Shown: positions 23,201 through 40,469 of the stretch, one piece after another
Layout of the letters: each line of letters begins with the position of its first letter
How positions within the stretch are numbered: the stretch's first letter is position 1
Assembly (NCBI GenBank): GCA_020635715.1
Contig: JACJZG010000012.1
Coordinates: 24,680-88,679, forward strand
Length of the DNA: 64,000 nucleotides
Source of the DNA: Flavobacteriales bacterium
GTDB taxonomy: Bacteria > Bacteroidota > Bacteroidia > Flavobacteriales_F > PHOS-HE28
Direction: 5' to 3'
Notes under the pieces: model-generated
Told to the model about the DNA's origin: nothing
Databases searched by the model: none
Seen by the model: the letters and a program-made list of their open reading frames with translations, nothing else
Position numbers and translations under genes: made by a program

Positions 23201-26200
23201 CCAGCGGAAGGCGTGTACAGCGCGTTGAGCGCGTTGGCGTTCGGGGTGAAGGTTCCGCCCGCTCCGGACCAGGTACCGCCGCTCGCGACGGTCACACTAC
23301 CGTTCAATTGGATGCCCGCGTTGTTCGCGCAGCGCACGCCGTCAGCACCGGCGTTCGCGGTGGGCGAAGCAGTGAAGGTGATGAGCACCTGATCCGATAC
23401 CGGCACGCAATTGCCATTGCCGATCGTCGTAAGGGTCAGGGTCAAGCTACCTGCGGCGACTTCCGCTGCGGTCGGCGTGTAGATCGCGTTCAGCGAAGCG
23501 ATGCTCGGCGAGAACGTTCCCGCACCACCACTCCATTGGCCACCACCCGCACCGCTCACGGAACCGCCGAGCTGCACGTTGGGGTTGTTGGAGCAGACCG
23601 CGATGTCATTGCCCGCATTGGCCACCGGCGATGCGATGATGGTGATGACCATCTGGTCGCTTACCGCATTGCAGAGGCCGTTGCCGGTGCTCGTCAACGT
23701 CAGCGTCACCGTGCCCAGGGCCAATTCCGCCGGGCTCGGCAGGTATGTCGCATTCAGCGTGTTCGCGTTCGGCGTAAAGCTGCCACTGCCACCGCTCCAC
23801 ACACCACCGGTCGCGATGGTCACAGAGCCGTTCAGGACGACCGTCGGATCGTTCGCGCACACGGTGCGGTCGATGCCGGCGTTCACCACGGGGCTCTGCG
23901 AGAAGAAGATCGTCATCTGATCGCTCACCGCCTGGCAGGTACCGTTGCCGGTGCTCGTCAGCGTGAGCGTCACGGAACCGTTGGCGAGTTCCGAGGTGCT
24001 CGGCGTGTAGGTCGCGTTCAGCGCATTGATGCTCGGTGAGAAGGTGCCCGTGCCGCCGCTCCAGATGCCGCCGCCCGCGTTGCTCACGGTACCGGCCATC
24101 TGCACTGTGGCATTGTTGGAACACACGGTCTGGTCCACTCCCGCGTTCACCACCGGCGAAGGCGCGATGGTGATCGTCATCTGGTCGCTCACCGCGTTGC
24201 ACAGACCGTTGCCGGTGCTGGTCAGCGTGAGCGTCACCGTACCTGCGGCCACTTCACCCAGCGTTGGCGTGTAGGTGGCATTCAGGTTCGTGTTGCTCGG
24301 GTTGAAGGTGCCGGAACCGCCGCTCCACACGCCGCCCGTGGCGTTGTTCACCACACCGGCCAATTGCGCGGTCGATTGGTTCGCGCAGGTGGTGATGTTC
24401 GCACCGGCGTTCGCGATCGGCGTAGGTGTGATGGTGATGGTGATCTGGTCGCTCTCCGGATTGCTGTTGCCGTTGCCCACCGTGGTGAGCGTCAGCGTCA
24501 CCGTGCCGGCCGCGATCTCAGAAGCGCTCGGTGTGTAGATGGCGTTCAGCGCACCGCTGTTCGGGTTGTACGTGCCCGTGCCACCGCTCCAGATACCCCC
24601 GGTGGCGATGGTCACCGCACCGTTCAGTTGTACGGTTACATTGTTCGCGCACACCGTCTGATCCGGACCTGCGTTCGCCGTCGGCGCAGCACCGAAGGTG
24701 ATCGTCATCTGGTCCGTTGAAGGCGAACACGCGCCATTTCCCGTGGTGATGAGCGTCAGCGTCACGCTGCCCGACGCGATCTCCGCAGGGGTCGGTGTGT
24801 ACACCGCGTTCATCGTGCTGTTGTTCGGGCTGTAGGTGCCCGCGCCGCCGGTCCATTGCGCACCGGTGCTGATGCTGAAGCTGCCCGCGAGCGTGGTGTT
24901 CGCGTTGTTGCTGCTCACCGTCTGATCCGGACCCGCGTTCGCGACCGGCGCCTGGGTGTAGGTGATGGTCACCGCATCGCTCACGGCGGCGCAGTTGCCG
25001 TTGCCGGTCGTCGTCGCGATCAGCGTTACGGAGCCGTTCACCACTTCGATGGGCGAGGGCGAATACGTGATGTTCTGCGCGGTGCTGCCCGGACTGTACG
25101 CACCGGTCCCCCCGGACCACTGCACACCGGTGGCCACCGTGATCACGGCGCCCAGCGTGGCGGTCGCGTTATTGCCGCAGACCGACTGGTCCACACCGGC
25201 GTTCACCGTCGGTGCGGGGGTGATCGTGTAGGTCACGTTGCTCGAGACCGCATTGCACTGGCCGTTGCCAGCAGAGGTCAGCGTGAGCGTCACCGTACCG
25301 GCCGCGATCTCCGCCGCGGTCGGCGTGTAGGTCGCGTTCAGGGTGATGTTGTTCGGGCTGAAGGAACCCGCACCACCGCTCCACACGCCACCGGCAGCAC
25401 CGGTCACGGCACCGTTCAGAGCGATCGCCGGAGCGTTCGCGCACACGCTTCCATTGGCGCCAGCGTTCACGATCGGCGCAGGCGTATAGGTGATGATCTT
25501 GGTGTCCGTGGCGGGCGTGCAGTTGCCGTTGCCCGTCGTGGTCAGTGTCAGCGTCACCTGGCCAGCAGCGAGGTCACCCGCGCCGGGGTTGTAGGTGGCG
25601 TTCAGCGTGTTCGCGTTCGGCGTGAAGGTGCCCGTACCGCCGCTCCACACACCGCCGGTTGCTACGATCACGCTTCCGCCAAGCGCTACTGCAGCATTGT
25701 TCGCGCAGCGCGTTACATCCGGACCGGCGTTCGCCGAAGGCGGATCGGTGAAGGTGAGCAGCACCTGATCGGTGGCGGCGTTGCACAGGCCGTTGCCCGT
25801 GGTGGTCAGTGTCAAGGTCACGCTGCCCGCTGCGATCTCCGCCGCGGTCGGCGTGTAGATCGCGCTCATGTTCGTCGTGCTCGGATCGAAGGTCCCCGCG
25901 CCGCCGCTCCAGATACCGCCCGTGGCGATGGAGAAGGCGCCGGACAATCCAGTGGCTGCGTTGTTCGCGCAGAGGACGCGGTCCGCGCCCGCATTGGCCG
26001 TCGGGGCAGGCGTGATGCTGTAAGTCACCTGGTCGCTCACGGCGTTGCAATTGCCGTTGCCCGTGGTGGTCAACGTCAGCGTTACAGTGCCAGCGGTACG
26101 TTCCGCCGCGCTCGGCGTGTACACTGCGTTCAGCGTCGTGTTGTTCGGGTTGAAGGTTCCCGTGCCGCCGCTCCAGGCAGCACCGGAAGCACCGGTCATC

Positions 26201-29070
26201 ACACCGGCCAGCGTGATGTTCGCGTTGTTCGCGCACACCGTGCCGTTCGCACCGGCATCCACCGTGGGCGCATCCGTGAAGGTGATCACCTTGGTGTCGC
26301 TCACGGCATTGCAGTTGCCGTTGCCCGTGGTGGTCAGCGTCAGCGTGAGGCTGCCGAGGGCGAGTTCCGATGGCGTAGGCGTGTAGGTCGCGTTCAGCGT
26401 GGTGTTGTTCGGCGTGAAGGAGCCCGCGCCGCCGCTCCAGATGCCGCCCGTGGCCACACCAACGGTACCGCTCAGCGCGACCGCCGCGTTGTTGCGGCAC
26501 ATCGATACATCGGCGCCCGCATCCACGGAAGGACTTGGCGTGAAAGAGAGCACCACGTTGTCGCTCACCGCCACGCAGTTGTTGTTGCCCGTGGTGGTCA
26601 GCGTCAGTGTCACCGAGCCGTTGGATATCTCCGCGGCGGTAGGCGTGTACGTAGCGTTCATCAAGGTGGCGCTCGGGCTGAAGGTTCCCGATCCACCGCT
26701 CCAAACGCCACCGGTCGCCACCGTGAACGAGCCGTTCATCGTGGCCACCGCGTTGTTGGCGCAGAGTGACTGGTCAGCACCCGCGTTGACCGTCGGCGCA
26801 GGCGTGATGCTGAAGGTCACGTTGTCGCTTACCGCGTTGCAATTTCCGTTGCCGGCGGAGGTCAGCGTGAGCGTCACGGTACCGGCGTTGCGCTCGGCAA
26901 CGGTCGGCTGATAGGTCGCGTTCAGCGTGGTATTGTTCGGCGAGAAAGTGCCCGCACCGCCGCTCCAGATCGCGCCGGTCGCGCCGCTCACTGATCCGTT
27001 CAAGGTGATGAGCGAGTTGTTCGCGCACACGGTGCCGTTCGCACCGGCGTCCACAACCGGAGCAGGTGTGAAGGTGATCGTGCGTGTGCTGGTCACGGCG
27101 TTGCAATTGCCATTGCCGGTCGTCGTCAGCGTGAGCGTCAACGTACCGGCTGCGAGTTCAGCTGGCGTCGGCGTGTACACCGCGTTCAAGGTGGTGTTGT
27201 TCGGCGTGAAGGATCCCAGGCCGCCGCTCCACACACCTCCTGTGGCACCGGATACGGAACCGGTCATCGTCACCTGCGGGTTATTCACGCAGATGGAGAT
27301 CGGCGCTCCAGCGTTCGCCACAGGCGCCGGCGTGAAAGCGATCGTGATGTTGTCGCTCACTGCCACGCAATTGTTGTTGCCCGTGGTGGTCAGCGTGAGC
27401 GTCACGGAGCCCGTCGCGATCTCGGCCGCGGTCGGCGTGTAGGTCGCGTTCAGGTTCGTGGTGCTCGGCGCGAAGGTGCCCGCACCGCCGCTCCAGATGC
27501 CGCCGGTGGCCACCGTGACGGAACCCGCCAGGGTCGCCACCGCATTGTTCGCGCAGAGGCTTTGATCCGGACCAGCGTTCACGGTCGGTGCCGGAGTGAT
27601 GCTGTAGGTCACTTGATCGCTCACCGCGTTGCAGTTGCCGTTGCCCACCGTGGTGAGCGTGAGTGTCACGGTACCGGCCGCGCGCTCCGCAGCGCTCGGT
27701 GTGTACACCGCGTTCAGCGTGGCGTTGTTCGGACTGTATGTGCCCGTACCGCCGCTCCAGACCGCGCCCGTTGCGCCGCTCTGCGAACCAGCCAGCGCGA
27801 TGGACGCGTTGTTCGCGCACACCGTGCCGTTAGGGCCAGCATCCACCGTGGGCGCAGGCGTGAAGGTGATCACGCGGCTGCTCTGCACCGGATTGCAGGT
27901 ACCGTTGCCGGTGCTCGTCAACGTGAGGGTCAAGGTGCCTCCGGCGATCTCAGCGGCCGTGGGTGTGTAGGTCGCGTTGAGCGTGCTGTTGTTCGGGTTA
28001 TAGGTGCCCGTTCCGCCGCTCCACACGCCGCCCGTCGCACCGCTCACGCTGCCGTTCAGGCTCACTTGCGCATTGTTCGCGCAGAGCGAGATCGGCGCGC
28101 CGGCGTTCACCACCGGTGCAGCTGTGAAGTTGATCGTCATCTGATCGGCGACGGCGGTGCAGTTGCCGTTGCCGGTCGTGGTCAGCGTCAGCGTGACAGA
28201 ACCGTTCGCGATCTCCGCAGCGCTTGCCGTGTAGATCGCGCCCATGTTCGTGGTGCTCGGATCAAAGGTTCCCGCACCGCCACTCCAAACCCCGCCCGTC
28301 GCGACCGTGAACGAACCGTTCAGTGCAACCGCAGGATTGTTCGCGCAACGGGTCGCATCGGCACCCGCATTCACCGTCGGTGAAGGCGTGATGGTGAAGG
28401 TCACCGCATCGCTCACGGCGTTGCAATTGCCGTTGCCCACGGTCGTCAGCGTCAGTGTCACGGTACCGGCCGCGCGCTCGGCAGCGGTCGGCGTGTACAC
28501 CGCGTTCATCGTGGCGTTGTTCGGGTTGTAGGTGCCCGCGCCACCGCTCCAGATCGCGCCCGTGGCACCGGTGAAGGCTCCGTTCAGGCTGATGTTCGCA
28601 TTGTTCTCGCATACACTCGCATCAGCTCCCGCGTTCGCGGTAGGCGCGGGCGTGAACGTGATCACGCGGCTGCTGGAGACCGGGTTGCAATTGCCGTTGC
28701 CCGTGCTGGTCAGCACCAGCGTAACGGTGCCCGCGGCCAGGTCGGCAGCGCTCGGCGTGTAGGTTGCATTGAGCGTGGTGTTGTTCGGGGAAAAGGTGCC
28801 GGAACTGGCGGTCCAGGCGCCGCCGGTAGCACCATCACACTGCTCAAGCTCACCTGCGCATTGTTGGCACAGAGCGATATCGGCGCGCTTGCGTTCACTG
28901 AAGGCGCATCGGGCGACGCGATCACCATCTGGTCCGTCGTTGCGTTGCAGGTCTTGCTGCTGGTCGTGGTCAACGCCACGATGCTGCGGCGATTCCGCTG
29001 CGCTCGGCGTGTACACCGCGCCCATGTTGGTGGTGCTCTGGACCAAAGGTGCCTGCACCCCTGCCCACAC
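17296..29070 (-). CDS. Giant T9SS-secreted repeat adhesin (SprB-class), the in-frame 3' 11.5 kb. The true reading frame is continuous only up to about 28,834.
   Basis: Single 3,924-codon ORF containing 40 tandem 88-aa modules (consensus ...P-x-P-x-[VA]-[ND]-A-G-x-D-x-x-x-C-x-N-N...A-T-G-G-x-W-S-G-G-x-G-T-F-x-P...L-N-A-x-Y-T-P...T-L-T-L-T-T-T-G-N-G-x-C...), then 2 PKD-like domains and a type B sorting domain. The listed Met at 29070 is in a wrong-frame extension and has no signal peptide. Confidence 0.85.
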   Translation of the reverse strand: MWAGVQAPLVQSTTNMGAVYTPSAAESPQHRGVDHDQQQDLQRNDGPDGDRVARCAFSERKRADIALCQQCAGELEQCDGATGGAWTASSGTFSPNNTTLNATYTPSAADLAAGTVTLVLTSTGNGNCNPVSSSRVITFTPAPTANAGADASVCENNANISLNGAFTGATGAIWSGGAGTYNPNNATMNAVYTPTAAERAAGTVTLTLTTVGNGNCNAVSDAVTFTITPSPTVNAGADATRCANNPAVALNGSFTVATGGVWSGGAGTFDPSTTNMGAIYTASAAEIANGSVTLTLTTTGNGNCTAVADQMTINFTAAPVVNAGAPISLCANNAQVSLNGSVSGATGGVWSGGTGTYNPNNSTLNATYTPTAAEIAGGTLTLTLTSTGNGTCNPVQSSRVITFTPAPTVDAGPNGTVCANNASIALAGSQSGATGAVWSGGTGTYSPNNATLNAVYTPSAAERAAGTVTLTLTTVGNGNCNAVSDQVTYSITPAPTVNAGPDQSLCANNAVATLAGSVTVATGGIWSGGAGTFAPSTTNLNATYTPTAAEIATGSVTLTLTTTGNNNCVAVSDNITIAFTPAPVANAGAPISICVNNPQVTMTGSVSGATGGVWSGGLGSFTPNNTTLNAVYTPTPAELAAGTLTLTLTTTGNGNCNAVTSTRTITFTPAPVVDAGANGTVCANNSLITLNGSVSGATGAIWSGGAGTFSPNNTTLNATYQPTVAERNAGTVTLTLTSAGNGNCNAVSDNVTFSITPAPTVNAGADQSLCANNAVATMNGSFTVATGGVWSGGSGTFSPSATLMNATYTPTAAEISNGSVTLTLTTTGNNNCVAVSDNVVLSFTPSPSVDAGADVSMCRNNAAVALSGTVGVATGGIWSGGAGSFTPNNTTLNATYTPTPSELALGSLTLTLTTTGNGNCNAVSDTKVITFTDAPTVDAGANGTVCANNANITLAGVMTGASGAAWSGGTGTFNPNNTTLNAVYTPSAAERTAGTVTLTLTTTGNGNCNAVSDQVTYSITPAPTANAGADRVLCANNAATGLSGAFSIATGGIWSGGAGTFDPSTTNMSAIYTPTAAEIAAGSVTLTLTTTGNGLCNAATDQVLLTFTDPPSANAGPDVTRCANNAAVALGGSVIVATGGVWSGGTGTFTPNANTLNATYNPGAGDLAAGQVTLTLTTTGNGNCTPATDTKIITYTPAPIVNAGANGSVCANAPAIALNGAVTGAAGGVWSGGAGSFSPNNITLNATYTPTAAEIAAGTVTLTLTSAGNGQCNAVSSNVTYTITPAPTVNAGVDQSVCGNNATATLGAVITVATGVQWSGGTGAYSPGSTAQNITYSPSPIEVVNGSVTLIATTTGNGNCAAVSDAVTITYTQAPVANAGPDQTVSSNNANTTLAGSFSISTGAQWTGGAGTYSPNNSTMNAVYTPTPAEIASGSVTLTLITTGNGACSPSTDQMTITFGAAPTANAGPDQTVCANNVTVQLNGAVTIATGGIWSGGTGTYNPNSGALNAIYTPSASEIAAGTVTLTLTTVGNGNSNPESDQITITITPTPIANAGANITTCANQSTAQLAGVVNNATGGVWSGGSGTFNPSNTNLNATYTPTLGEVAAGTVTLTLTSTGNGLCNAVSDQMTITIAPSPVVNAGVDQTVCSNNATVQMAGTVSNAGGGIWSGGTGTFSPSINALNATYTPSTSELANGSVTLTLTSTGNGTCQAVSDQMTIFFSQSPVVNAGIDRTVCANDPTVVLNGSVTIATGGVWSGGSGSFTPNANTLNATYLPSPAELALGTVTLTLTSTGNGLCNAVSDQMVITIIASPVANAGNDIAVCSNNPNVQLGGSVSGAGGGQWSGGAGTFSPSIASLNAIYTPTAAEVAAGSLTLTLTTIGNGNCVPVSDQVLITFTASPTANAGADGVRCANNAGIQLNGSVTVASGGTWSGAGGTFTPNANALNALYTPSAGELAAGSVTLTLTTTGNNGCTAVSDDVTYTFTPAPTANAGADLFTCANNASVQLNGAITVATGALWSGGNGTYSPNNGTLNATYTPSASEIAAGTVTLSLTTVGNGTCNPVSDQVVITIIPSPIVNAGTPLTSCANNPAVQLAGSVQNATGGIWSGAGTFSPSNTNLSATYTPSNAEIAAGTATITLTSTGNGLCNAVASQVVLTITAAPVVEAGSPQTLCANNAVAQLNGSVANATGGVWSGVSGAFSPNSNTLNAAYTPSAAEIASGQVWLFLTSTGNGGCVSTQDSVQLVFTPAPTVNAGPDAHVCANAAQASLSGAVTVATGGIWTGGNGSYTPGNAALNATYFPTAAEIASGQFTLVLSSTGNGNCAIVRDSLIVLVDPVPVVNAGPDQQICANNSNVQLNGFVGNAPGGAWSGGAGTFFPSNTMLATQYAPTAAEIAAGSVTLTLSSTGTAYCNAVTDQMTIVFTGAPIVDAGSDLQICANNSAVQLTGNVTNASGGTWTGGSGSFAPNANVLSPVYTPSAGELAAGTLSLYLTSTGNGNCLAVRDTVVVTFTPAPTVNAGVDQNMCMNNAVVTLNGAVTVATGAQWSGGLGTFTPNAQTLNAQYVPSSFELGSGSVQLTLTTTGNGNCTAVSDQMMITVTPSPVVDAGADVTTCSNQLQVPLNGTVQGGATTGQWTTSGTGLFSPSPTALNATYIASSLDSLNGSVELTLSSSNNGLCTAVSDAMTITILPNAIANAGVDQTICASTSSIQLSGTITGNATQGQWTSTGAGSFLPSAADANAVYQLAPGDAAQGTLTFTWSVNSCDNAMDQMVLTITPESVVNAGADQVTCFGDLDVVINGTVSGASSSGTWSTLGSGGFANANTALSNVYQASANDQLAGGAYLVLTATNTGVCAPGADTLFIAIQPEGTVNAGLDVTACANNAVTQLNGQLSGDASQVQWSTSGTGSFYPNPNVLTPTYIPSAIDTAIGNLTLTISAPGSCNNATDAMQLTLTPAPYVNAGPDQTYCNAVTQFNLNGAISGITNVGQWTTTGTGTIANAGALNTTYTASAADIANGSITFTLSSLDNANCNPVTDQMTIYLTDGIITNAGPDQNVCVLSDHANLLGSIQNGSPSGTWTSTGTGTFEPSADALNAQYFFSAADVTNGSVVLTLTATNTGTCPSTQDAMVITFGNSSYAYAGADQVLCANAPIAQLAGNYSGGSSGITWSTSGTGSFSNITDPGATYTMSGADITAGSVQLTLTTITSGACAVSSDVVLLSVNPLPNINAGADIIACTAAPVQLTANVANAGGGTWTTSGTGTFFDPNALATLYLPSAADSLAGSVTLTVTTIGMAPCSAVSDELVISFGGGLAAVAGADVVACSTDPNIALNGAVAGTTTGTWSTSGTGSFMPNANALNATYIPGAADYAIGNINLVLSTTNNQGCPAGRDTLVVSYHVPPTVNAGADVLLCNGLEDVQLNGTAQNQGSVQWTTMGSGSFQPSADVLNAVYTATANDSIAGGVYLVLTAFGTGTCGNAADSVFIDIGPTRIANAGADQTVCADMDPIALGGSITGVSGGVWSTSGTGTFLPDATTLGAAYVPSSTDMAFNELRFILTTTGNMGCPADTDTMRVSLQAVPTVNAGSDLSTCDASAPVDLSGSFTGASGIQWSTNGAGVFLPSNTAANASYQPGATDEQLGTVRMVLTTTGNGVCAAVSDTLMLSFVNPLQPAFGVTNACAGSITSFMDASTTSGSAIIGWSWDLGNGVPVNGPEASTSFTEPGEYTVTLTVFAQNGCSASITRTVEVLDAPVAGFTISGELLTETEIAFTDTSVGATNWHYDFGDGGGSLLAEPVHAYETPGQYIIVQTVTNANGCTDRDSLLIKVEVKDILPPKLPNAFSPNGDGVNDVFYVRGGPFETMHLRVFNGWGELIFETEDPTFGWDGTHDGQPEINGVYVYSVVATTKDGTVHDRSGKISLIR
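17299..17556 (-). other. T9SS type B C-terminal sorting domain (gliding-motility-associated CTD, TIGR04131-like)
   Basis: LPNAFSPNGDGVNDVFYVRGGPFETMHLRVFNGWGELIFETEDPTFGWDGTHDGQPEINGVYVYSVVATTKDGTVHDRSGKISLIR* matches the PNxFxPNGDGxND...WDG...G.Y.Y...R pattern. Confidence 0.8.
17557..18066 (-). other. Two PKD-like domains
   Basis: F-x-D-x-S...W-x-[WF]-[GD]-[DL]-G...H-x-[YF]...G-x-Y-x-V-x-L-x-V...G-C patterns (WSWDLGNG...GEYTVTLTVFAQNGC; WHYDFGDG...GQYIIVQTVTNANGC). Confidence 0.7.
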
Positions 29071-32000
29071 CCCGCCGGTAGCAATGTAGAAGGGAACCGT
29101 TCAGTGCAACAGCCGCGTTGTTCGCGCGGTGACCGTGCGGTCGAGTCCGCGTTGGGCCGTCGGAGCCGGCGCGATCGTGAAGGCTCACGTTGTCGCTCAC
29201 GGCGTTGCAGTTGCTGCTGCCTACGGTCGTGGAGGGGAGTGAGCGTCATCAAAGCGCAGTACGTTCGGCGGCGCTGGCGGCACACCGTGCCTGGCGTCGT
29301 GTTGTTCGGTTGTAGGTGCCCTGCGCCACCGCTCCGTGATCACCCTGGTCGATACCGTGAAGGAGCTGTTCAGTGTGATGTCTGCGCGGTTCGCGCACAC
29401 ACTTCGTCGCGTTTGCACCAGCATCCACTGCCGGTGCTGCGTGAAGGCGATCACCGGCTGTCGGAAATGGCGCGCTGCAGCTGCTACTGCCGGTCGGCTG
29501 GCGGTCAGTGGTCAGCGTACCCGCAGCCAGTTCAGCGGGGTCGGCGGTAGAAGGTTGCGTTGATGTCGTGCGTTGTTCGGCGTGAAGGATCCCGCACCAC
29601 TGCTCCAGATGCCGCCCGGCGACCGTCACGCTTCCGCCCAGGCCACGCCTGCGTTATTGCAGCAGAGTGTCAGGTCCGGACCAGCGTTGGCCGTCGGACC
29701 GGGGTGAAGTTCAGCTGTACCTCGACCGGTCACAGTGATAAGGCGGTGCCGTTGCCGGTCGTGGTCAGTGTAAGCGTCACCAGGTTGCCTTCGCGCATCC
29801 TTTCGGCCGCCGTCGGTGTGTAGGTCGCGTTGAGGTTCGTGGCGCCTGGCGCGAAAGTGCCTGCTCCACCGCTCCAGATGCCGCCTGTCGCGATCGTCAC
29901 GCTGCCACCCATAGGGGAGGCGACAGGGTTGTTGCAAAGGATTGGTCGGCGCCCGCGTTGGCTGTCGTGGACAGGTGTTATCGCGTAGGTTACGTTATCG
30001 CTCATCATGTTGCAGTTAAGCGTTGCCGGCGGAGGTCAGCGCTGCATCACCGTTCCAGCAGTTCAGCGGCGGTGGGTGTATAGGTCGCGTCTGGCGCGGT
30101 GTTGTTCGGGAAGAGCAGGTTCCCGCCCCACTGCTCCAGGATGCCGCCAGGCGCCGGTCACGGGATCCGTTCAAACCGACCGTTGCGTTGTTCGTGCAAA
30201 TCGAACTGTTCGCACCCGCGCTCACGATCGGCGCAGGCGTGAAGCGACCACCCTTGTTACCACGACTGGGTTGCAAGTACCCGTTACCGGTACTGGTCAA
30301 GGTGAGGGTGAGCGCGCCTGCGGCCATTTCCGATGCAGTGGGTGTGTAGGGTGGCGGTGAGCGCGGTGCTGCTCGGGTTGGCTGCGCCGTGCCGCTCCAG
30401 ATGCCACCGGTGGCCCCGGTCACAGAACTACTCAAGCTCACCTGCGCATTGTTGGCGCAGAGTGAACAGGCGCGCCTGCGTTCACCACAGGAGCTGGCGT
30501 GAAGCCGATCACCATCCGGATCCGGTGACCGCCGTGCAGGTACCATTTCCGGTCGTCGCTCGCGTAAGCGGTCACAGGAGCCGCTCGATATCTCACCAGC
30601 GGTCGGCGTACCGCACCCAGCGTTGGTGGTGCTCTGATCGAAAGAGCCTGCCGCTGCTCCAGATACCACCAGTGGCAACCGTGAACGAAACCGTTCAGGT
30701 GACCACCGCAAGAAATTGCGCAGGTGACCGTGCGATCGTTGCTCGTACTGGGCTGGGCGTCGGAGTGCCGCCGGCGCGACCGTGATGCGGACGTTGTCGT
30801 CACGGCGCTGTAGCTGCTGCTGCCCACCAGGTGAAGGCAGAGCGTCACGGCGCCTGCCGTGCGCCTGCTAGCCGCGCTTCGGGTGTGTACACCCCGCGCG
30901 ATGTGGTGAATATTGTTCGGGCCAGGTGCCCGTCTGCCGCTCCATGTCGCACCGGAAGCACGGCGCATCGAGCCCGCCAGCGTGATGGAAGCGTTGTTCG
31001 CGCAAACCGTCGCGTTCGCTCCCGCATCCACCGTTGGTGCAGGTGTACGGCGATCACCTTGCTGCTGGATACCGCATTGCAGTTCCTGTTGCCCGTAGAG
31101 GTCAAGGTGAGCGTCACCGTTCCCGCGGCTGCATTTCCGGGTTGTGCGGCGTGTAGGTGGCGTTCAGGGTCGCACTGGGTTGAAGGCCCGTGCCACTCGC
31201 TCCAGGCACCGCCCGTGGCGCCGGTCACACTGCCGCCTTTGCTGACTCTGCGCATTGTTCGCGCATACCGATAAACAGCGGCACCCGTGCTCACGACGGG
31301 CGCAGGCGTGAAGTTCAATTGCATCGCTGTCCCGTCACCGCGATGCAAACTGCCGTTGCCGGTGTCGCCAGCGTAAGCGTGACGAAACCGCTTGAGACTC
31401 CCCCGGGCGTAGGCGTGTATTGAGCACCCATGTTGGTCGTCGCCTGGGTCGAAGGAGTTTCGCACCGCTGCTCCAAATTCACCGGTCGCCACGGTGAACG
31501 ATCCGTTCATCGGCTACCGCGTTGTTCGCGCAGAGTGTCTGGTCCATACCCGGCGTTCGCCGTCGAGCTGCCGCGATCGTGTACGTCATTGCTGTCGCTC
31601 ACGGCGCTGTGCAGGTGCGTTGCCTACGGTGGCGTGACAGCACGGTGCCAGCGGTACGTTCCGCTGCGCTCGGCGTACACTCCGCATTCAGTGGTGTTGC
31701 CCGCTGGTGGTAAATTTCCGGGAAGTTCTGCTCCATACCGCGCCAGCTGCGCTGCTCTGCGTACCTGCCAGCGTGATGTCCGTATCACCGCGCACACCGA
31801 CCTGCTCGCACCGGCATCCACATCGGTGCCGGGTGATAATCACCTTTGTCGTTTCGTCACCGGCAGGCAGCGCCGCTATTGCCCGTACTGCTCTGGCGTC
31901 AACGTCAAGGTGCTGTAGCAGCGACCCTGCAGCTGTCGGCGGTAACGCGTTCAGCGTCGTTGTTCGACTGTAGAAAAGCCCGCACCGCCGCTCCAGGCAC

Positions 32001-32610
32001 CACCGGTCGCGCCGGTCACCGTGCCGTTGAGGCTCACCAGCGCGTTGTTCGCACAGAGCGAAACAGCCGCACCGGCATTCACCACGGGTGCTGCCGTGAA
32101 GCTGATGAGCACCTGGTCGTTCACTGCGGTGCAATTGCCATTGCCCGTGGTGGTCATCGTCAGCGTTACCGAACCACTGGAGATCTCCGCGGCCGTCGGC
32201 GTGTATTGCGCCGACATGTTGGTCGCTCGGGTCGAAGGATCCCGCACCACCGCTCCACACACCGCCCGTGGCCACGGTGAACGAACCGTTCAGATGCACC
32301 ACCGCGTTGTTCGCGCAGCGCGTCTGGTCCGCTCCCGCATTCGCGGTCGGCGCAGGCGTGAAGGACACGAGCATGCTGTCGGCCACCGCACTGCACACAC
32401 CGTTGCCGGTAGAGGTCAATTTGATCCACACCGAACCCGCCGTCAGGTCAGCGGCGCTGGGTGTGTAGGTCGCGTTGAGGTTGCTGTTGCCAGGCAGGAA
32501 GGTTCCCGTGCCGCCCGTCCATACACCACCGACCGCGTTCAGCACGCTGCCCGCGAGCTGCACCACATTGTTGTTGCGGCACACGCTCTGATCCGGTCCC
32601 GCGTTCGGTA
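18067..32610 (-). repeat. Tandem array of 264-nt (88-aa) coding modules, with a 792-nt three-module higher-order period in the 5' half
   Basis: The plus-strand anchor TTGCAnTTGCCGTTGCC (reverse complement of the GNGNC codons) sits at 25253, 26045, 26837, 27629 and 28421 (steps of exactly 792 nt) and at 28685 (+264). The 40 intact modules were counted by their [ND]AG...C starts. About 13 further degraded modules extend up to about 32.6 kb. Confidence 0.85.
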
Positions 32611-34244
32611 TCGGCTGCGGGCTGGAAGGTCACCACCATCTCATCATCCTCTGGCGTACGGCCCCTGTCGAGGTCAGCGTCAGCGTGACTGTTCCATCGC
32701 GAGATCACCGGATGCTCAAGGGATAGGTGGCGTTCAACGAAGTAGCGCTTGGCGAGAACAACGTGCCGCTTCCGCTCGTCGTCCAGATGCCCGTTGTACC
32801 CCGCTGGAAACGCTCCCGTCAACAACACGCTGTCCCCGGCACATCGCGTCTGGTCCGCACCCGCGCTCACATCGATCCTTCCGGAGAACTCGGAGAAGAA
32901 GCCGTAGCGGCAACCCGAAGTGGCACCGCCGTTGATGATCGCCAGCGAGAACACATCGCTCGTGTTGCTCACGATGAAGGCCTGGTTCACTGGCACCTCG
33001 GTGGTGTTGTACTGATGCGCGGCCACCATCGCCGCCGGTGCCCGGTACCGTCACGAATGCCGAACCCGGTATCGTTGCTGTACCGGGTCCCGTCACCACG
33101 AAATCGTTCTGCGATCCGTTCCGAACGAGGAGATTCAGGTAGAAGGCCTCGCTGGTACTTCGCGTGAAGCTGAGCTGCGTGCTACCCGCACAATTCAATG
33201 GCGGCAGGATCGCCATGCCCTGCTCGCAACCGAAGCCGGTGACATGGATCGCGTATAGCGGCTTGGAGCCGCTCACGTAGGTCGCGTTGTTCCCACCGCT
33301 CGGCAGGTAGTCCATGTCGTGGCGGTAGTACTGGCCGGCGAAGAGCGTGGCCACCGGCGTGGTGTTGCCATCGATGTAGACCTGCGTATTGTTCTGCACA
33401 GCCATCACGAAGAGCGACTCGTCGCCGGTGGTGTTGAGCGCGCCCTTCACGGCCACGTAATCGGTGCCGAGGATGTTCACCGGCACGATCTGGTCCAGCA
33501 TCAGGTCATAGCAGCCGCCCGATGGGTTGTGGTTCGAGTCATCCTTGATCGACACCGCAACAGGCTTGTTCGAAAGCACGACAGCTCCCGAAGGGTGCGT
33601 CGCCGGGTCGGTCTGGTTGGTGCCGGTCCACGCGCAGGAATAGGTCTGGCCCCGGTTCAAGGTCACCGTGAAGGGCGTAAGCGCGGGATGACCATCCACC
33701 GGCAGGGGCGAATAGATCATCACCAGCGTCCCGTTCTCGGTGGCTACGATATCGAAGGAGGCGTAGGCCTTGTTCGGCGCGGAATAACCGTGGTTGTAAA
33801 ATGGCGCGTGCTTGTGCAGCGGGATATAGAACTCGGTACCCAGGCCATTGGCACCTTTCAGCGCTGCGATGTCGGGGTTGTTCGTGAAGCTCGGCTCATA
33901 GTAGCACGATGTCTGGAGGTGCTCTGGATGTACAAGCCGGTGTTAAGGACCGCATCCGTTGACGCGTCTCCAACTTCGAATTTTCAAGGAGGTCAGGGTC
34001 GTACTGCTGCGCCGCTGTGTTGGCCAGGTTCAGCACGACGGCTGCTCTGCTGAAGCCTGGGTTACAGGTTGCGAAATGGTCACGACCGCAGGCAGGCCCG
34101 TGGAGGTGACGTTGATGTGTATCGGCTGGTCGCCAAAGTGGGACGACGACCTCGGGAGGTGCCAGCCAGAAATTGGTACTGGTTTGGGCATGGGTCAGCC
34201 CCTGAAGAGCAGCCTGCCACTGGTGGAGGAAGTGCCTGTTTCAT
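28835..34244 (-). pseudogene. Frame-disrupted 5' third of the giant adhesin gene (signal peptide, ~550-aa unique N-terminal domain, ~13 modules)
   Basis: At least 15 collinear minus-strand ORF fragments carry module sequence or N-terminal-domain sequence (for example 32734..33723 YYEPSFTNNPDIAALKGANGLGTEFYIPLHK...). The putative start MKQALP... is at 34244, followed across frame hops by STNFWLAPPEV / SSSHFGDQPIHINVTSTGLPAVVTISQP. The first disruption is at about 28,834 (one base missing in AGC AGT GTG A-T GGT GCT ACC). Confidence 0.7.
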
Positions 34245-36773
34245 TCGGAGAAGGTCCCGGTCCATGAGTGGTGGACCGATGCTCGCCCCCACGGTCATCG
34301 ACGAAAAGGGTTCATTCTTCACGGAGGTCTGTCCACCGACTCCCCCTCGGTTCCTGGCGCGCGACCTTCCACTCACTTTGGTCCGGCTCTGCCGCCTTTG
34401 ATCACCATGCCGCGCCACCTCCTCCCGCTCGTCCTTCCGGGCTTGCTGGCCCCTGCTGGCCTGACGGTTGACGCCCGGGATGCGGACGCGCGTCTGGGAA
34501 AGCGAAGCCGCGCGACTACAGCAACGCTCCTTCGACGAACGGAGCATTCGCACGGCTCGCGCCACACAGGCGCTCTCGCGCAGGTGAACTGGTCGAGCTT
34601 GGTCTGACCGTGCTGATGGTGGAACACGCACGGGGATCTGGAAGACGAGCACTTCCACACCGGGACCACCTACCCTCGGCTTCATTGGTGACAGCCTGGT
34701 GCTGGGGCTGGTCGGTCCTGAGGATGCGGGCCTTGTAGCCAGTGACGCCACGGCGCTGGCCCAGCGCGTTGCGCTCAAGGTGGCATCCACCAACATGCGA
34801 TGGTCGCGGTGGCACCTGCACCCGGTACGCCCTGGTGCCTGCCCTGGCTCACGCCCCGATCGAGAAACCGCCACCTCCAACGCCGTTTCCACCTGTCCTC
34901 GACCTGGGCGCCCTTTACCCAACCCCGCGAAGCATCGGGTCCGTTGATAGCGGATGCGGCGGACAGCCCGTTGCTACGTCTCGCCTGGCGCGGAGATGTG
35001 ACCGGGATACAGGGCCTCCCGGATCATCGGTCGGCCTTCGTCCTGCTCCCCTGCTCAGCGCTTGCTGCCCCATCGTACGAAAGCGGTCCCATCCAGTCGC
35101 TGATCGGCTTATCGAGCGCCCTGCCTGTTCTCGATCTTCCTGGGGTTCCGCTCACTGCGTTGGCGGTGCTTCCTCTTCATACCATCCGCCCTTCTGACCG
35201 GCTCCCTGGCGTTTCCTTCGGACCCGGCCACCTATGTGGCCTCCTTCGCCTTCCCTCCTCGGGATCTGGGCATCAACGCCGCGGCCGACGCATCGCTGTT
35301 GTTCACACCTTCGACGACAGTTCAGCAAGGGCCATCACTGGTGCACCACAGTTCTACGATCCTGTTCTGGGCGCGTTTCTTGACCAGTGGTACTGGATCA
35401 CGGACACCATCATCGGTCTGGTGAACGCAGTAGGACCTGACCTATACCTACGTGCAGAACCTCACCGCGGGTGCTGCGGCCTTTGTCCGGCATCGCCCTG
35501 CCTCTTCATCGTGCGGACTTTGCTCGCGGAGACGTGCGTGCATGCCATGGCGCGCTTCCGACCTGGCTCCATGCCACATGGCTCGTAGGTGCCATGGTCT
35601 TCGTCCCTTTCCGTCATCCCGTGGTAACCATAATGGACTGGCGTGCGCGACACCGCCCTCCTTCCTCTGCCATTGCTTCCGATCGTCGCCCTGCTCGTTC
35701 ATATTACTGAACATGACCGTTCGAGGTTCATACATGCTGCAGTGGGTGTTGGCGTCCTTGGTAGGCTCACCGCGCACGTCCTCAATGGGGCATACGCGGG
35801 TCGAGAGCACCGCGAACGCCTGTGCTCGCCGAACGCCTCAGCGTTAAGGAGACCTGAAGTCGGAGGTGCTCTTCCGCGGCGGTTCTACCCCTGCGAAGCG
35901 ACACCGCCCTTCACCGCATCATCACCTCGACTAAGCGTTCCCTGCGGCCGGCGAGCTTGATGCGGCCGTTCGCTCATCTTCTTCGGGGATTCTGGGAACG
36001 GTACAGCGCGCGTCTTCGCCCCTGATGCAGTAGCCCGTGCGCCGTTCCTCCAGCTAACACACCCCGAAGCCTGGAGATCGCTAGGCTCCCTCCCTTCACG
36101 GACCACGCCGCACCCCGCCGACATGCCCGATCTCTCTTCTGAACAAGCGAGGCACCGAAGGACCTTACCGCCACGCACGACTGGTGGTGATGCTAACAAC
36201 AGACACCCCGGGTCAGCTTTATACCGAACTGCATCCACGCCCGCCTCCTGTGGTCATGGGCTTTCTCCTGACCCGCTCCTTCCGGAGATGAGGCCCCTGT
36301 CGACGGCACGATCACATGCCATCGCCCGCTATGAGCATTTGGCATGTTGTGGACCCATCCCATGTGGCGACTTCCGCTCACCTGGAACCGAGCTCGGTAC
36401 GGATGGTAGGCCTTATGGTACACTACCGCGGGAATTCGGCCCGCATCACGACCGGGACGGTCATCGTTCTGGGTCTTCCGGTACCTGGCCCATTGGACAA
36501 GGCCACCACCTTCAGCTACCTCTTCGCATTCTCTCGGCTTCCTGCTCGCACTGGCTATGGGCGCGCGCAGCATGGTACGGAAAATGAGGCATCCCCGCCG
36601 ATGGGCATCGGGGCTAAGGTCCATCGCCCCTGCTGTCCCTTCGCCGCATCAGTCTGGTCTTCTTCGGCGCCGGGGCGAACATGCTGCTGGCCGGCAGTAC
36701 ACCGAACGCACTGAGTGCCGCCATCCTCGAGAGAAGGCCCGTTCGGCACATGCAACCGTAAATAACGATTCGG

Positions 36774-38026
36774 ATGGCCAGCCGACCCTCGGGCGCATCA
36801 GGATGCCCGCCATCTGGAACATCTGTTGGCAGGCTGAGCAACATGCTCTTCTCCGACATCACGGTGTACGACATCAACGGCAGGGCATCATTTCTTCACG
36901 TCCACAGGTGTTCACGAACGGACTGCCGGCCCCTACATGGACCTGCTGGCCTTCGTGCGCCTGGTACCGAGGGCGCGGGCGACTTCGCATGAGGAATCCA
37001 TCGGCACGGCACTATACCAGAACGCCTACATGCCCCTGCGCGATCGGTCCGGTCAGGTGCTTGGCCACCTCTCGCTACCTGCGTTCGCTGATCAACGCCA
37101 GCAGGAACAGGAGCGCTCGGGTGTGCTCATCGCCGTGGTCAACCTTTTCGTGCTGCTCTTCGCCCTCAGCGTTCTCGTGGCGCTCTTCATCAGCAACTGG
37201 ACCACCCGACCGCTCGACCTCTTGAAGCGATCGCTCGCCAGCGTGGAATTGAAGGGCACCGACCGCAAGCTCCGCTACCGCGGGCGCGATGAAGTGGGTC
37301 AGCTGGTGGAGGTGTACAACCGCAAGGTGGAGGAATTGCGGGTGAGCGCAGAGAAGCTCGCGCAAAGCGAGCGGGAAAGCGCGTGGAAGGAGATGGCCCG
37401 GCAGGTGGCGCACGAGATCAAGAATCCCCTCACGCCGATGAAGCTGTCCATCCAGCACTTCCAGCAGACCCAGACCTGGCTGCAGCGGGCGCGCGGGAAC
37501 GCCCGGAATTGCCGCAGCAACAACCGAGTTTTACCCAACGGCCAGAGTTCAGCTTATTTCCGCGCAGATGCCGCCAGTATTGTTCCCCACGACCATCGAC
37601 CTCGCCGAAGTGGCGCGGACATCCGTGCAGCTCTTCGGGCATGCGCCCGGTTGCTCCGTTAAGCTCACGAGCCATGGCGAACTGCTGGTGCATGCCGATC
37701 GCGAGCACCTGCTGCGCACCTTCAACAACCTCATCAAGAACGCACAACAGGCCATCCCCGATGGGCGGCAGGGTGTGGTGGAGGTGATCCTACGGGCGGA
37801 AGGAGGCGAGGCCATCGCCGAAGTGCGCGACAATGGTGCGGGCATCCCGGCCGATACCGCCGACCATGTCTTCGTTCCGAAGTTCACCACCAAGAGCAGC
37901 GGCATGGGCCTGGGCCTCGCCTACAGGAAACGTATGGTGGAGAATGCGGGCGGGCGGGTCTGGTTCAATTAATGACAGAGGGGAGCGGCACCAGCTTCTT
38001 TGTGGCTCATGCCCTTGCAGAAGTAG
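36774..38026 (+). pseudogene. Sensor histidine kinase (extracellular Cache-like domain, TM, HAMP, HisKA, HATPase_c) with several frameshifts. The 5' limit is uncertain and probably lies upstream near 36.2 kb.
   Basis: Readable pieces sit in three frames. These are LSNMLFSDITVYDINGR / IISSRPQVFTNGL / YMDLLAFVRL...LPAFADQRQQEQERSGVLIAVVNLFVLLFAL (TM), then HAMP, then the H-box WKEMARQVAHEIKNPLTPMKLSIQHFQQT. After a frame hop come EFYPTARVQLISAQMPPVLFPTTIDLAEV...NLIKNAQQAI (N box)...DNGAGIP (G1)...GMGLGLA (G2)...GGRVWFN. Two more hops then lead to EGSGTSFFV..LPLQK*. Confidence 0.7.
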
Positions 38027-38092
38027 CCGATACCTTTGGCCAGGCCGATCAACTGACCGCCTCATTTCCTGATCATCTGATCCTTTCGGTAC

Positions 38093-38875
38093 ATGTCCTA
38101 CAAGAACCTCCTCGTCACCGACGCCGACGCCGTCCGCACCATCACCATCAACCGTCCCGACCAGCTCAATGCGCTGAACCGTGACACCATCGCCGAACTG
38201 AACAAGGCGCTGACCGCTGCCGAGGCCCACAAGAGCATCCGCGTGGTGCTGCTCACCGGCAGTGGCCAGAAGGCCTTCGTGGCCGGCGCCGACATCAAGG
38301 AGTTCGCCAACTTCAGTGTGCCCGAAGGGAAGGCCCTTGCTGCTGATGGCCAGAAGCAGCTCTTCGATCATGTGGAGCACCTCGGCAAGCCGGTGATCGC
38401 GGCCGTGAACGGATTCGCGCTCGGCGGTGGATTGGAGTTGGCCATGAGCGCACACGTGCGCATCGCCAGTGAGAATGCGAAGATGGGCCTGCCCGAAGTG
38501 AGCCTTGGCGTGATACCCGGCTACGGTGGTACGCAACGTCTGCCGCGCCTGGTGGGCAAGGGCAAGGCGATGGAGATGATCCTAAGCGCCCAGATGATCG
38601 ACGCGAACGACGCGTACCAGTGGGGCCTGGTGAACCGCGTGGTACCGCAAGAACAACTGCTGAGCACCGCGCATGAGCTGGCCGTGCGCATCATGAAGAA
38701 CAGCCCCACCGCCCTCGCCGCTGCCATCCGCGCGGTGAACGCCGGTTACGAGCCCGGCGCCAACGGCCTGCAACGCGAGATCGAGGAGTTCGGAAAGTGC
38801 TTCGGAACAGCGGACTTCAAAGAAGGGACAACGGCGTTCGTGGAGAAACGGAAGGCGAATTTCACGGGGGCGTGA
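38093..38875 (+). CDS. Enoyl-CoA hydratase/isomerase (crotonase) family protein
   Basis: 260 aa, full-length and uninterrupted. Motifs VVLLTGSGQKAFVAGADIKEF and AAVNGFALGGGLELAMSAHVRIAS (oxyanion hole). Confidence 0.9.
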   Translation: MSYKNLLVTDADAVRTITINRPDQLNALNRDTIAELNKALTAAEAHKSIRVVLLTGSGQKAFVAGADIKEFANFSVPEGKALAADGQKQLFDHVEHLGKPVIAAVNGFALGGGLELAMSAHVRIASENAKMGLPEVSLGVIPGYGGTQRLPRLVGKGKAMEMILSAQMIDANDAYQWGLVNRVVPQEQLLSTAHELAVRIMKNSPTALAAAIRAVNAGYEPGANGLQREIEEFGKCFGTADFKEGTTAFVEKRKANFTGA

Positions 38876-38962
38876 TCCACAGATGACACCGATGACGCAG
38901 ATGAGATACAGTTGTGGTCACGTCGTGGGCTGCTCATCTGTGTCATCTGCGCCATCTGCGGA
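38876..38962. repeat. Imperfect inverted repeat (30-nt arms, 27-nt spacer) built from CAGATGA/GATGAC motifs; REP-like element or terminator
   Basis: Left arm TCCACAGATGACACCGATGACGCAGATGAG (38876-38905). The reverse complement of the right arm is TCCGCAGATGGCGCAGATGACACAGATGAG (38933-38962). 25 of 30 positions can pair. Confidence 0.5.
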
Positions 38963-38971
38963 TGTACTGCA

Positions 38972-40469
38972 TTGAGCACACTTCGCAAACTCGCCGGCCA
39001 GACAGCCATCTACGGGCTGAGCAGCATCGTTGCGCGCTTCCCTGAACTTCCCTGCTGGTGCCCTTGTACACCAGCAGTCTTCGTCTTCGCGTTTGGCGGA
39101 ATACGGCGTGGTCACCGCGCTCCACTTCCTGATGCCTGCTCAACGTGGTGTCACCTTCTCGGCATGGAGATCCACCTTCTTCCGCTTCGCCAACAACAAG
39201 GACCATGTTGGCGAAAACCCTGATGGTGGGCGTGCTGCGGCCAGCACCGCCACCTGGTCTTCTTCTTCCCCCGCGCTCGCCTTCATGCTCCTCGGCGGTC
39301 TGTTCTCACAACAACTGGCGGATGGTCTCCACTTCAGTGCATACGCCAGCTCGGTGCTCATGCTCGTGGGCATCATCGGTATCGATGCCATCACCGCCAT
39401 CCCCATGGCACGCTTACGCCAGGAAGGACGGCCCTGGAAATACGCCGCCATCAACCTGCTCAGCGTGGGCGTGAACATCGGCCTCAGCCTCTTCTTCCTG
39501 TTGTACTGCATGAAGCGCTACAACATGGGCGAGAGCAACGCGCTGATCGACGCGGTGTACGACCCTTCGCTCGGTGTGGGCTATGTGTTCGCCATCAACC
39601 TCGTGAGCACCGCGGTGAAACTGCTCGTGCTTCTACCCTCGTGGCCCCGGTTCGGTGGCTTGAACAAGGAGCTGCTGCGCGCGATGTTCGCCTTCGGTGC
39701 GCCGCTCATGATCGCGGGTCTCGCCGGCATGGTGAACGAGACCGCCGACCGTGTGATCCTCAAGTACCTCCTGCCCGCCGATGTGGCCGATAGCGAGCTC
39801 GGGATCTACGGCGCCTGTTACAAGCTGGCGGTGCTGATAACCCTCTTCATCCAGGCCTTCCGCATGGGCGCCGAGCCCTTCTTCTTCAGCCACGCGAAAG
39901 AGAAGAACAGCAAGGAGACCTTCGCCCGGATCATGAACATCTTCGTGGCCGTGTGCATGAGCGCCTTCCTGGTGGTGATGCTCTTCCTCGACCTGTTCAA
40001 GTGGTTCATCCCGAACCCGGCCTACCACGTTGGATTACGCGTGGTGCCGATCCTGATGCTCGCCAACGTCTTCCTGGGCATCTACTACAACCAGAGCGTG
40101 TGGTACAAGCTCACCGACCGGCCGCGTGTGGGTAGCACCATCAGCATCATCGGCGCGGGCATCACTATCGTGCTGCTCTTCGCACTGATACCCGCTATGG
40201 GCTACATGGGCGCCGCATGGGCCACCTTCATTTGCTACGCGTGCATGGCGGCCATCAGCTACGTCTGGGGGCAGAAGCATTACCCGATCCCGTACAACGT
40301 GAGCCGCATCCTGCTGTACATGGCGGGTGCGGTGCTCTTGTGGTGGGGATGTGAGCAGCTGGCGTTGGAGGGAGCGGCCAACTATGCCATGCGCTCTACA
40401 GCCTTGTTGATCTTTCTGGCCGCTGCCTGGAAGCTTGAAAAGGACGTGCTCCGACCTTTGCGGGCATGA
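38972..40469 (+). pseudogene. MOP-superfamily (Wzx-like) polysaccharide/oligosaccharide flippase. The first ~290 nt are frame-disrupted and the remaining 400 codons are intact.
   Basis: A TTG start gives (M)STLRKLAGQTAIYGLSSIVARF. The expected continuation LNFLLVPLYT..EYGVVTAL...LNVV.TFGMETTFFRFANNKD is only obtained after removing or adding single bases between 39,040 and about 39,260. Listed ORF 39030..40469 carries the intact polytopic remainder. Confidence 0.7.

Follow-up and report, generated by a model that had tools for sequence, protein, structure and literature searches.

A stretch without credible open reading frames in a Flavobacteriales assembly: a sensor histidine kinase gene, very probably obscured by assembly noise

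Large sensor histidine kinases of about 1210 aa are recurrent in the Flavobacteriales. The search for full-length homologues retrieved 82 proteins of this size, nearly all from uncultured members of the order, and their annotations are generic, namely "ATP-binding protein", "GHKL domain-containing protein" or "HAMP domain-containing histidine kinase" at NCBI and NtrY at JGI. Two reports (10.1101/2021.08.23.457338, proovframe; PMC9262707) document indel-driven frameshifts as a weakness of long-read and hybrid assemblies. The present analysis concerns positions 34245-36773 of a 64,000-nucleotide window (the whole stretch of DNA that was analysed, G000:C4:24680-88679, where G000 is the label of the source metagenome-assembled genome, MAG), for which an original prediction made from the letters alone had reported no credible open reading frame (ORF) between the start of an adhesin gene and a kinase remnant. 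This stretch is made up of a 162-bp divergent spacer and the adjoining first 789 codons of a gene for a sensor histidine kinase of 1210 aa. With high confidence, it represents an ordinary kinase gene lying under assembly or consensus noise in a strain-mixed MAG, an explanation in which we infer the sequencing technology and the assembly step. The underlying gene is of a conserved and already annotated kinase type, and its biology is ordinary.

Collinearity of the stretch with an orthologous kinase gene

Based on the alignment, the tblastn search and the coordinate map, the window is collinear with the orthologous kinase coding sequence (CDS) throughout 34407-38026. In the stretch itself, tblastn with the orthologue returned islands of identical peptide that are collinear and spread through all three plus frames. 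Orthologues came to light only when the clean C-terminal part of the kinase (window 37045-37560) was used as query against the genus, and the kinase was found in 36 of 41 genomes as open frames of ~1130-1370 aa. The closest orthologue, on G041:C1 (JAGQVR010000099.1, Flavobacteriales bacterium HKST-UBA109), is a single intact ORF of 1210 aa (MPRHLLLLVL...) with an enoyl-CoA hydratase gene on one side and the adhesin start (MKQALLLVLGLLFTG...) in divergent orientation 161 bp from the kinase. A second close orthologue from GCA_041391865.1 (L026) is also intact and has the same neighbours in the same order, and intact copies occur in about 80 further MAGs of the Flavobacteriales. The kinase CDSs of G041 and L026 are each 3633 nt long with no gap between them, and their differences over codons 1-790 number 264, 70 and 35 at codon positions 3, 1 and 2, respectively. 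Because the two genes are gap-free and their differences are dominated by third positions, the kinase is under purifying selection where it is intact. The kinase and the enoyl-CoA hydratase gene stand together in all nine loci examined, and the adhesin start also lies beside the kinase in seven of them, a divergent arrangement that may point to a regulatory link. A nucleotide search of 40 relatives with the stretch gave short, weak matches only, because the noise ruins similarity at the DNA level.

The original prediction was right that 34245-36773 contains no credible ORF. The listed frames are exclusively rich in Arg, Pro, Ser and Gly, with maxima of 280 aa (minus strand) and 262 aa (plus strand). 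Against Pfam at E<=0.1, ten ORFs of the stretch yielded nothing except two noise hits below threshold, both in a single ORF. Rfam 15, a check that the prediction had proposed, was searched on both strands and yielded no match in 32000-39000 at the gathering score or in 33800-37200 at E<=1, and neither tRNA nor tmRNA was found by a scan of the stretch region. In a genome of 62% GC, three-phase GC periodicity is a mark of coding DNA; this signal collapses over ~33.9-37.0 kb, with scores of 0.02-0.17 as against 0.3-0.65 in the adjacent genes. Only two low-periodicity runs of the 3.6-Mb assembly are longer, the rRNA operon (the longest, on contig C55) and a tract on contig C13, and the length of the present run exceeds chance expectation. 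The further claim that no frame gives protein-like sequence was too strong, as the collinear identical peptides in the three plus frames demonstrate. The plus strand is indeed rich in C and T, as had been noticed by eye, with a GC skew of -0.05 to -0.17 and an AT skew as low as -0.27. The base composition of the stretch (C 0.351, G 0.280, T 0.210, A 0.159) is shared by the coding strands of the intact orthologues (C 0.355, G 0.295, T 0.20, A 0.15), and the strand skew is therefore a property of the gene and no separate signal.

The peptide fragments picked out in the earlier reading find their place in the kinase. The signal-peptide-like start at 34407 (MPRHLLPLVLPGLLAPAGL; MPRHLLPLVL...) is a real peptide and the true start of the kinase, and the codon-biased piece PQFYDP...WITDTIIGLVNA is equally real and aligns to the kinase N-terminal region, in the membrane bundle. 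The pieces compared with a CarboxypepD_reg/TonB-plug N-terminus (TVDARDA, GELVELG, ADAADSP..WRGD) are genuine peptides as well, but they had been misassigned and align to the predicted first extracytoplasmic domain of the kinase. The transmembrane (TM)-like pieces at 36.2-36.7 kb belong to the kinase, not as its N-terminus but as residues ~600-770 including a TM helix pair. What had been regarded as a kinase remnant beyond the stretch is kinase sequence, although it is the final third of the same gene instead of a separate remnant. The truly non-coding part of the stretch is only the divergent spacer at 34245-34406, which runs from the adhesin ATG to the kinase ATG; its 162 bp agree in length with the spacers of the relatives, with 161 bp in G041 (7009/7171) and 162 bp in L026 (5838/6001).

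Damage pattern, strain mixture and possible origins

Compared with G041, the stretch contains 165 mismatches, counted as 43/47/65 at codon positions 1/2/3, together with 81 insertions and 77 deletions, each 1-4 bases long, which amounts to about one indel per 16 bp. The indel-to-substitution ratio is thus ~1:1, and insertions are about as frequent as deletions. No frame stays open because of this indel density combined with codon-blind substitutions: the kinase frame is broken into 140 segments within the stretch, the longest of 115 bp, and into 164 same-frame segments across 34407-38026, so that the kinase is not translatable in this assembly. We attribute the broken frame to assembly noise and not to biology.

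Private changes were defined on a three-way alignment as the columns in which the window differs from both G041 and L026. Their distribution is all-or-none with borders inside genes, as 541 were counted in 33909-36987 and none in either 36988-37470 or 38010-38850. The main noisy block (33909-36987) carries 17.6 private columns per 100 bp and, according to the gap profiles, frequent 1-3-base indels; it covers the first ~110 adhesin codons, the spacer and kinase codons 1 to ~860. The stretch falls entirely within this 3.08-kb block, in agreement with the earlier suggestion that it is the most heavily damaged part of a disrupted tract. The following clean patch (36988-37470, plus strand), which encodes the end of an sCache-like domain, the last TM helix, HAMP and the start of HisKA, is free of private changes and follows the L026 haplotype at 58 of the 59 informative sites in 37000-37399. 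Against G041, 37000-37499 shows 64 substitutions, 53 of them (83%) at position 3, and a single indel. A small second noisy patch (37471-37584, plus strand) with 52 private columns, also seen as a break in the tblastn alignment, interrupts the linker between HisKA and HATPase_c, and the three-way alignment revealed a small third one at the kinase 3' end (37918-38009, plus strand). The damage looks technical because of the ~1:1 ratio of indels to substitutions, the parity of insertions and deletions, and the all-or-none borders inside genes. In addition, the differences are indel-rich, codon-blind and private to this assembly while clean orthologues exist elsewhere, as expected of a long-read or hybrid error tract.

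Gaps were also observed at two other places in the window. The minus-strand adhesin repeats at 28800-32000 have 5-14 gap columns per 200 bp relative to L026, in an alignment that is ambiguous inside the 264-nt repeats, and the 5' end of a flippase gene at 39000-39300 has 17 and 6 gap columns relative to L026 in two 200-bp bins. These indels probably belong to the same noise problem.

The source MAG comprises 58 contigs and is estimated to be 79% complete with 4.17% contamination. Along the window, 32200-32999 has the L026 haplotype and 33000-33799 the G041 haplotype, there nearly free of private changes; 33909-36987 has the G041 haplotype with the 541 private columns added, and from 36988 the L026 haplotype holds with zero private changes outside the patches 37471-37584 and 37918-38009. 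Over 32200-40077 as a whole, the haplotype switches every few hundred bases, being L026-like at 37.0-39.0 kb and again G041-like at 39.5-40.1 kb. Such switching reflects either a chimeric consensus or real recombination of co-occurring strains.

Contig C53 of the same MAG (2041 bp) is a clean copy of window 32658-34700; it has 99.6% identity to G041, and on it lie an open adhesin N-terminus of 553 aa and kinase codons 1-95. Against the window, C53 shows 108 mismatches and 55 gap events, which occur in patches. About ten small contigs (C27, C28, C30, C36, C38, C41, C42, C49, C53 and C54) repeat segments from the interior of large contigs, with 75-100% identity and a mosaic pattern, and these ten contigs represent strain heterogeneity within the MAG. 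Apart from the pair C53/C4, the strain duplicates differ by ~20 mismatches per gap and keep their frames open. A second tract of the same kind, ~7 kb long, was located on contig C13 at ~25,700-32,700 (locus L033 1700-8700), with 8-42 gap columns per 250 bp relative to G041:C33 and equally sharp borders (no gaps before 25.5 kb or after 32.75 kb); G041 has an intact frame of 2878 aa there, whereas the longest frame in the source MAG is 337 aa. Furthermore, a complete 16S-tRNA-tRNA-23S-5S operon lies inside the 179-kb contig C55 at 143,260-148,270 (locus L034 1261-6268). A complete rRNA operon within a long contig is unusual for a short-read MAG, and its presence suggests a long-read or hybrid assembly. 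A 44-mer taken from the noisy tract had no exact occurrence in JGI metagenome and GTDB genome contigs; this negative is uninformative, since the metagenome collection likewise lacked a clean-patch 44-mer used as a control.

Homology, collinearity, error spectrum, sharp borders and haplotype switching were all observed directly. Their most probable cause is technical: a low-coverage or unpolished long-read consensus, for example a bridge beside the hard-to-assemble repeat adhesin, would have been left in a MAG built from at least two co-occurring strains, with adjacent patches resolved or polished to the sequence of either strain. Several points weigh against this explanation. No clear association of the indels with homopolymers is seen, as 32 of the 77 deletions and 46 of the 81 insertions lie beside the same base, and the pattern looks more like raw-read noise than like the residual homopolymer errors of a polished nanopore consensus. 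A noisy read alone leaves the clean islands unexplained, and patchy polishing or graph-derived segments have to be assumed in addition. Moreover, haplotype mosaicism taken alone could also be obtained through real recombination. Real pseudogenization, in which the kinase and the adhesin 5' end are dead in this strain and the indels and substitutions genuinely accumulated, is nevertheless improbable. The damage does strike neighbouring genes, which could be lost together. Decaying bacterial pseudogenes, however, show far more substitutions than indels and a deletion bias, contrary to the 1:1 ratio and the balance of insertions and deletions observed here. The damage also stops abruptly inside the kinase at 36987, followed by 483 bp with zero private changes, and the differences from G041 beyond this point fall on third positions at the 83% given above, whereas a dead gene should decay along its full length. 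Apart from its noisy blocks, the window agrees fully with one or the other relative, leaving no time for ~12% private change, and a clean copy of the left end of the tract exists in the same bin on C53. It is still harder to credit that the frameshifted sequence is real. In that case a living strain would have, across the divergent adhesin-kinase promoter region, a 3-kb block with sharp limits in which private changes reach ~12% and small indels account for half of them, and a localised indel-prone hypermutation or repair process would be implied. A milder reading, likewise of low probability, takes the conserved divergent pairing, present in seven of the nine loci, as a mark of the kinase as dedicated regulator of the adhesin.

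The proposal of a large non-coding RNA or regulatory region upstream of the adhesin gene retains virtually no probability. The lack of an ORF and the skewed strand composition would agree with it, but Rfam offered nothing even at the permissive threshold, the intact coding strand has the same skew, and the intergenic part is just the 162 bp of 34245-34406. In the relatives, the homologous DNA forms an ORF of 1210 codons without gaps, in which third positions dominate the divergence and HAMP, HisKA and HATPase_c follow downstream; the orthologous loci thus hold an ordinary intact gene, the very outcome that the original prediction had named as decisive, and the proposal is refuted. A shattered TonB-dependent receptor/CarboxypepD_reg gene or a multi-copy mobile element is dismissed with the same near certainty. 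The short peptide resemblances that spoke for the former align to the kinase N-terminal region, and the Pfam families CarboxypepD_reg and Plug matched neither the orthologue nor the ten ORFs of the stretch. As for the latter, only the first ~450 bp of the stretch recur within the genome, on the strain-variant contig C53; the earlier idea of a multi-copy element that escaped polishing accordingly fails in its first half, as C53 overlaps the left end only, while the escape from polishing fits the error spectrum. Two further candidates were rejected. Hypermutation of the diversity-generating retroelement (DGR) type alters adenine-templated positions only and makes no indels. Plain strain divergence does not apply either, considering that the other strain-duplicate contigs keep their frames at ~20:1 mismatches to gaps.

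Kinase architecture and neighbouring genes

The kinase gene extends over 34407-38026 on the plus strand, as delimited by tblastn collinearity, the coordinate map, the frame path and the orthologues P0001 and P0003. In the 1210-aa orthologue P0001, Pfam recognizes HAMP (928-979), HisKA (994-1060) and HATPase_c (1103-1209), with a weak sCache signal at 814-890. The HATPase_c match scores 81.2 bits against a gathering cut-off of 26.4, and HisKA scores 27.7 bits against 26.9, as expected of a two-component sensor histidine kinase. The window frame 37562-37966 is 93% identical to the HATPase_c part of P0001, and the H-box AHEIKNPLTPM is intact within the window ORF 36937-37662.

No Pfam family was matched by residues 1-800 of P0001, and no PDB sequence by its first 800 residues. 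Many invariant residues in this part are common to the homologues. For the L026 protein, AlphaFold2 modelled residues 1-800 with a mean pLDDT (predicted local distance difference test) of 79.5; after a first TM helix, the model places alpha/beta domains at 26-192 and 478-692, with a helical bundle at 201-473 between them and a TM pair at 696-756 behind the second. A Foldseek comparison with the PDB brought up weak matches only (E>=3e-3), namely to KinD and to chemoreceptor ligand-binding domains of the dCache/PAS type. Transferred to the plus strand of the window by the coordinate map, a predicted Cache/PAS-like extracytoplasmic sensor domain corresponds to 34482-34988, the putative multi-helix membrane bundle to 35016-35842, the predicted second alpha/beta domain to 35853-36480 and the candidate TM helix pair to 36488-36674. 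The full layout would therefore run from the first TM helix through the Cache/PAS-like outer domain, helical bundle, alpha/beta domain, TM pair, sCache-like domain and last TM helix to HAMP, HisKA and HATPase_c, and helix parity suggests that all three alpha/beta domains are extracytoplasmic. The label used at JGI, that of an NtrY-type nitrogen-regulation kinase, is not supported. No NtrY equivalog is among the best 25 NCBIfam matches listed, and the listed matches cover the C-terminal kinase core only, far below their cut-offs; in addition, the N-terminal 800 aa appear much larger than, and different in layout from, an arrangement of four TM helices, HAMP and PAS.

On the other side of the spacer, the 5' end of the giant SprB-type adhesin gene of the type IX secretion system (T9SS) occupies 33909-34244 on the minus strand. 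Its ATG was located at 34244 (MKQAL...) and its frame is shifted here, in contrast to the clean adhesin N-terminus (MKQALLLVLGLLFTGLTHAQ...) present in contig C53 and in G041. Comparison of the window with loci L023, L025, L029 and L031 showed that the ~530-aa N-terminal domain of the adhesin has 78-91% aa identity across the genus as against 47-69% for the adjacent kinase. Downstream of the kinase, the enoyl-CoA hydratase gene (38093-38875, plus strand) is intact in the ORF list and lies inside a clean patch of L026 haplotype with no private change in the three-way alignment. On G041:C1, the flippase and enoyl-CoA hydratase genes are separated by ~1.43 kb (locus L022 ~1100-2528) compared with ~100 bp in the window and L026, and no ORF of at least 150 aa other than shadow frames is listed in this insertion.

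Significance and comparison with described systems

The gene-free stretch is not a real feature of the organism, and it brings no new RNA or regulatory element. It serves as a caution that this species-representative MAG holds kilobase tracts of raw-read-grade noise, which gene callers will render as pseudogenes, as junk ORFs or as "intergenic" DNA. Neither the absence of the kinase nor the "degraded" adhesin 5' end is to be taken for gene loss, a pseudogene cluster or a non-coding RNA candidate, and the C13 tract and the strain-duplicate contigs suggest that other oddities of this genome need the same check. The biology of the locus is mildly interesting for its large uncharacterised sensor region of ~800 aa and for the conserved position beside a giant gliding/T9SS adhesin gene.

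In comparison with known error patterns, the stretch resembles long-read and hybrid assembly errors in its dense 1-3-base indels that fragment ORFs, its codon-blind substitutions, and its patchiness with sharp borders; it also adjoins a giant repeat gene, in an assembly that has an rRNA operon inside a long contig. It departs from them in a local error of ~12% of positions, which is the level of raw reads and far above that of a polished consensus, and in the lack of a clear link to homopolymers. The likeness to a strain-chimeric MAG consensus lies in the alternation of G041-like and L026-like sequence, the duplicate contigs and the 4.17% contamination, whereas mixing alone gives substitutions, as in the ~20:1 ratio of the other duplicates, and not an indel load of 1:1. 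Compared with the ~1210-aa HAMP/HisKA/HATPase_c kinases of the Flavobacteriales, the copy in the window is untranslatable as it stands; nonetheless, it is collinear with them over the whole protein, it shows full identity to P0003 in its clean parts (residues ~860-1020), and it is flanked by the same neighbours, the divergent adhesin gene and the downstream enoyl-CoA hydratase gene.

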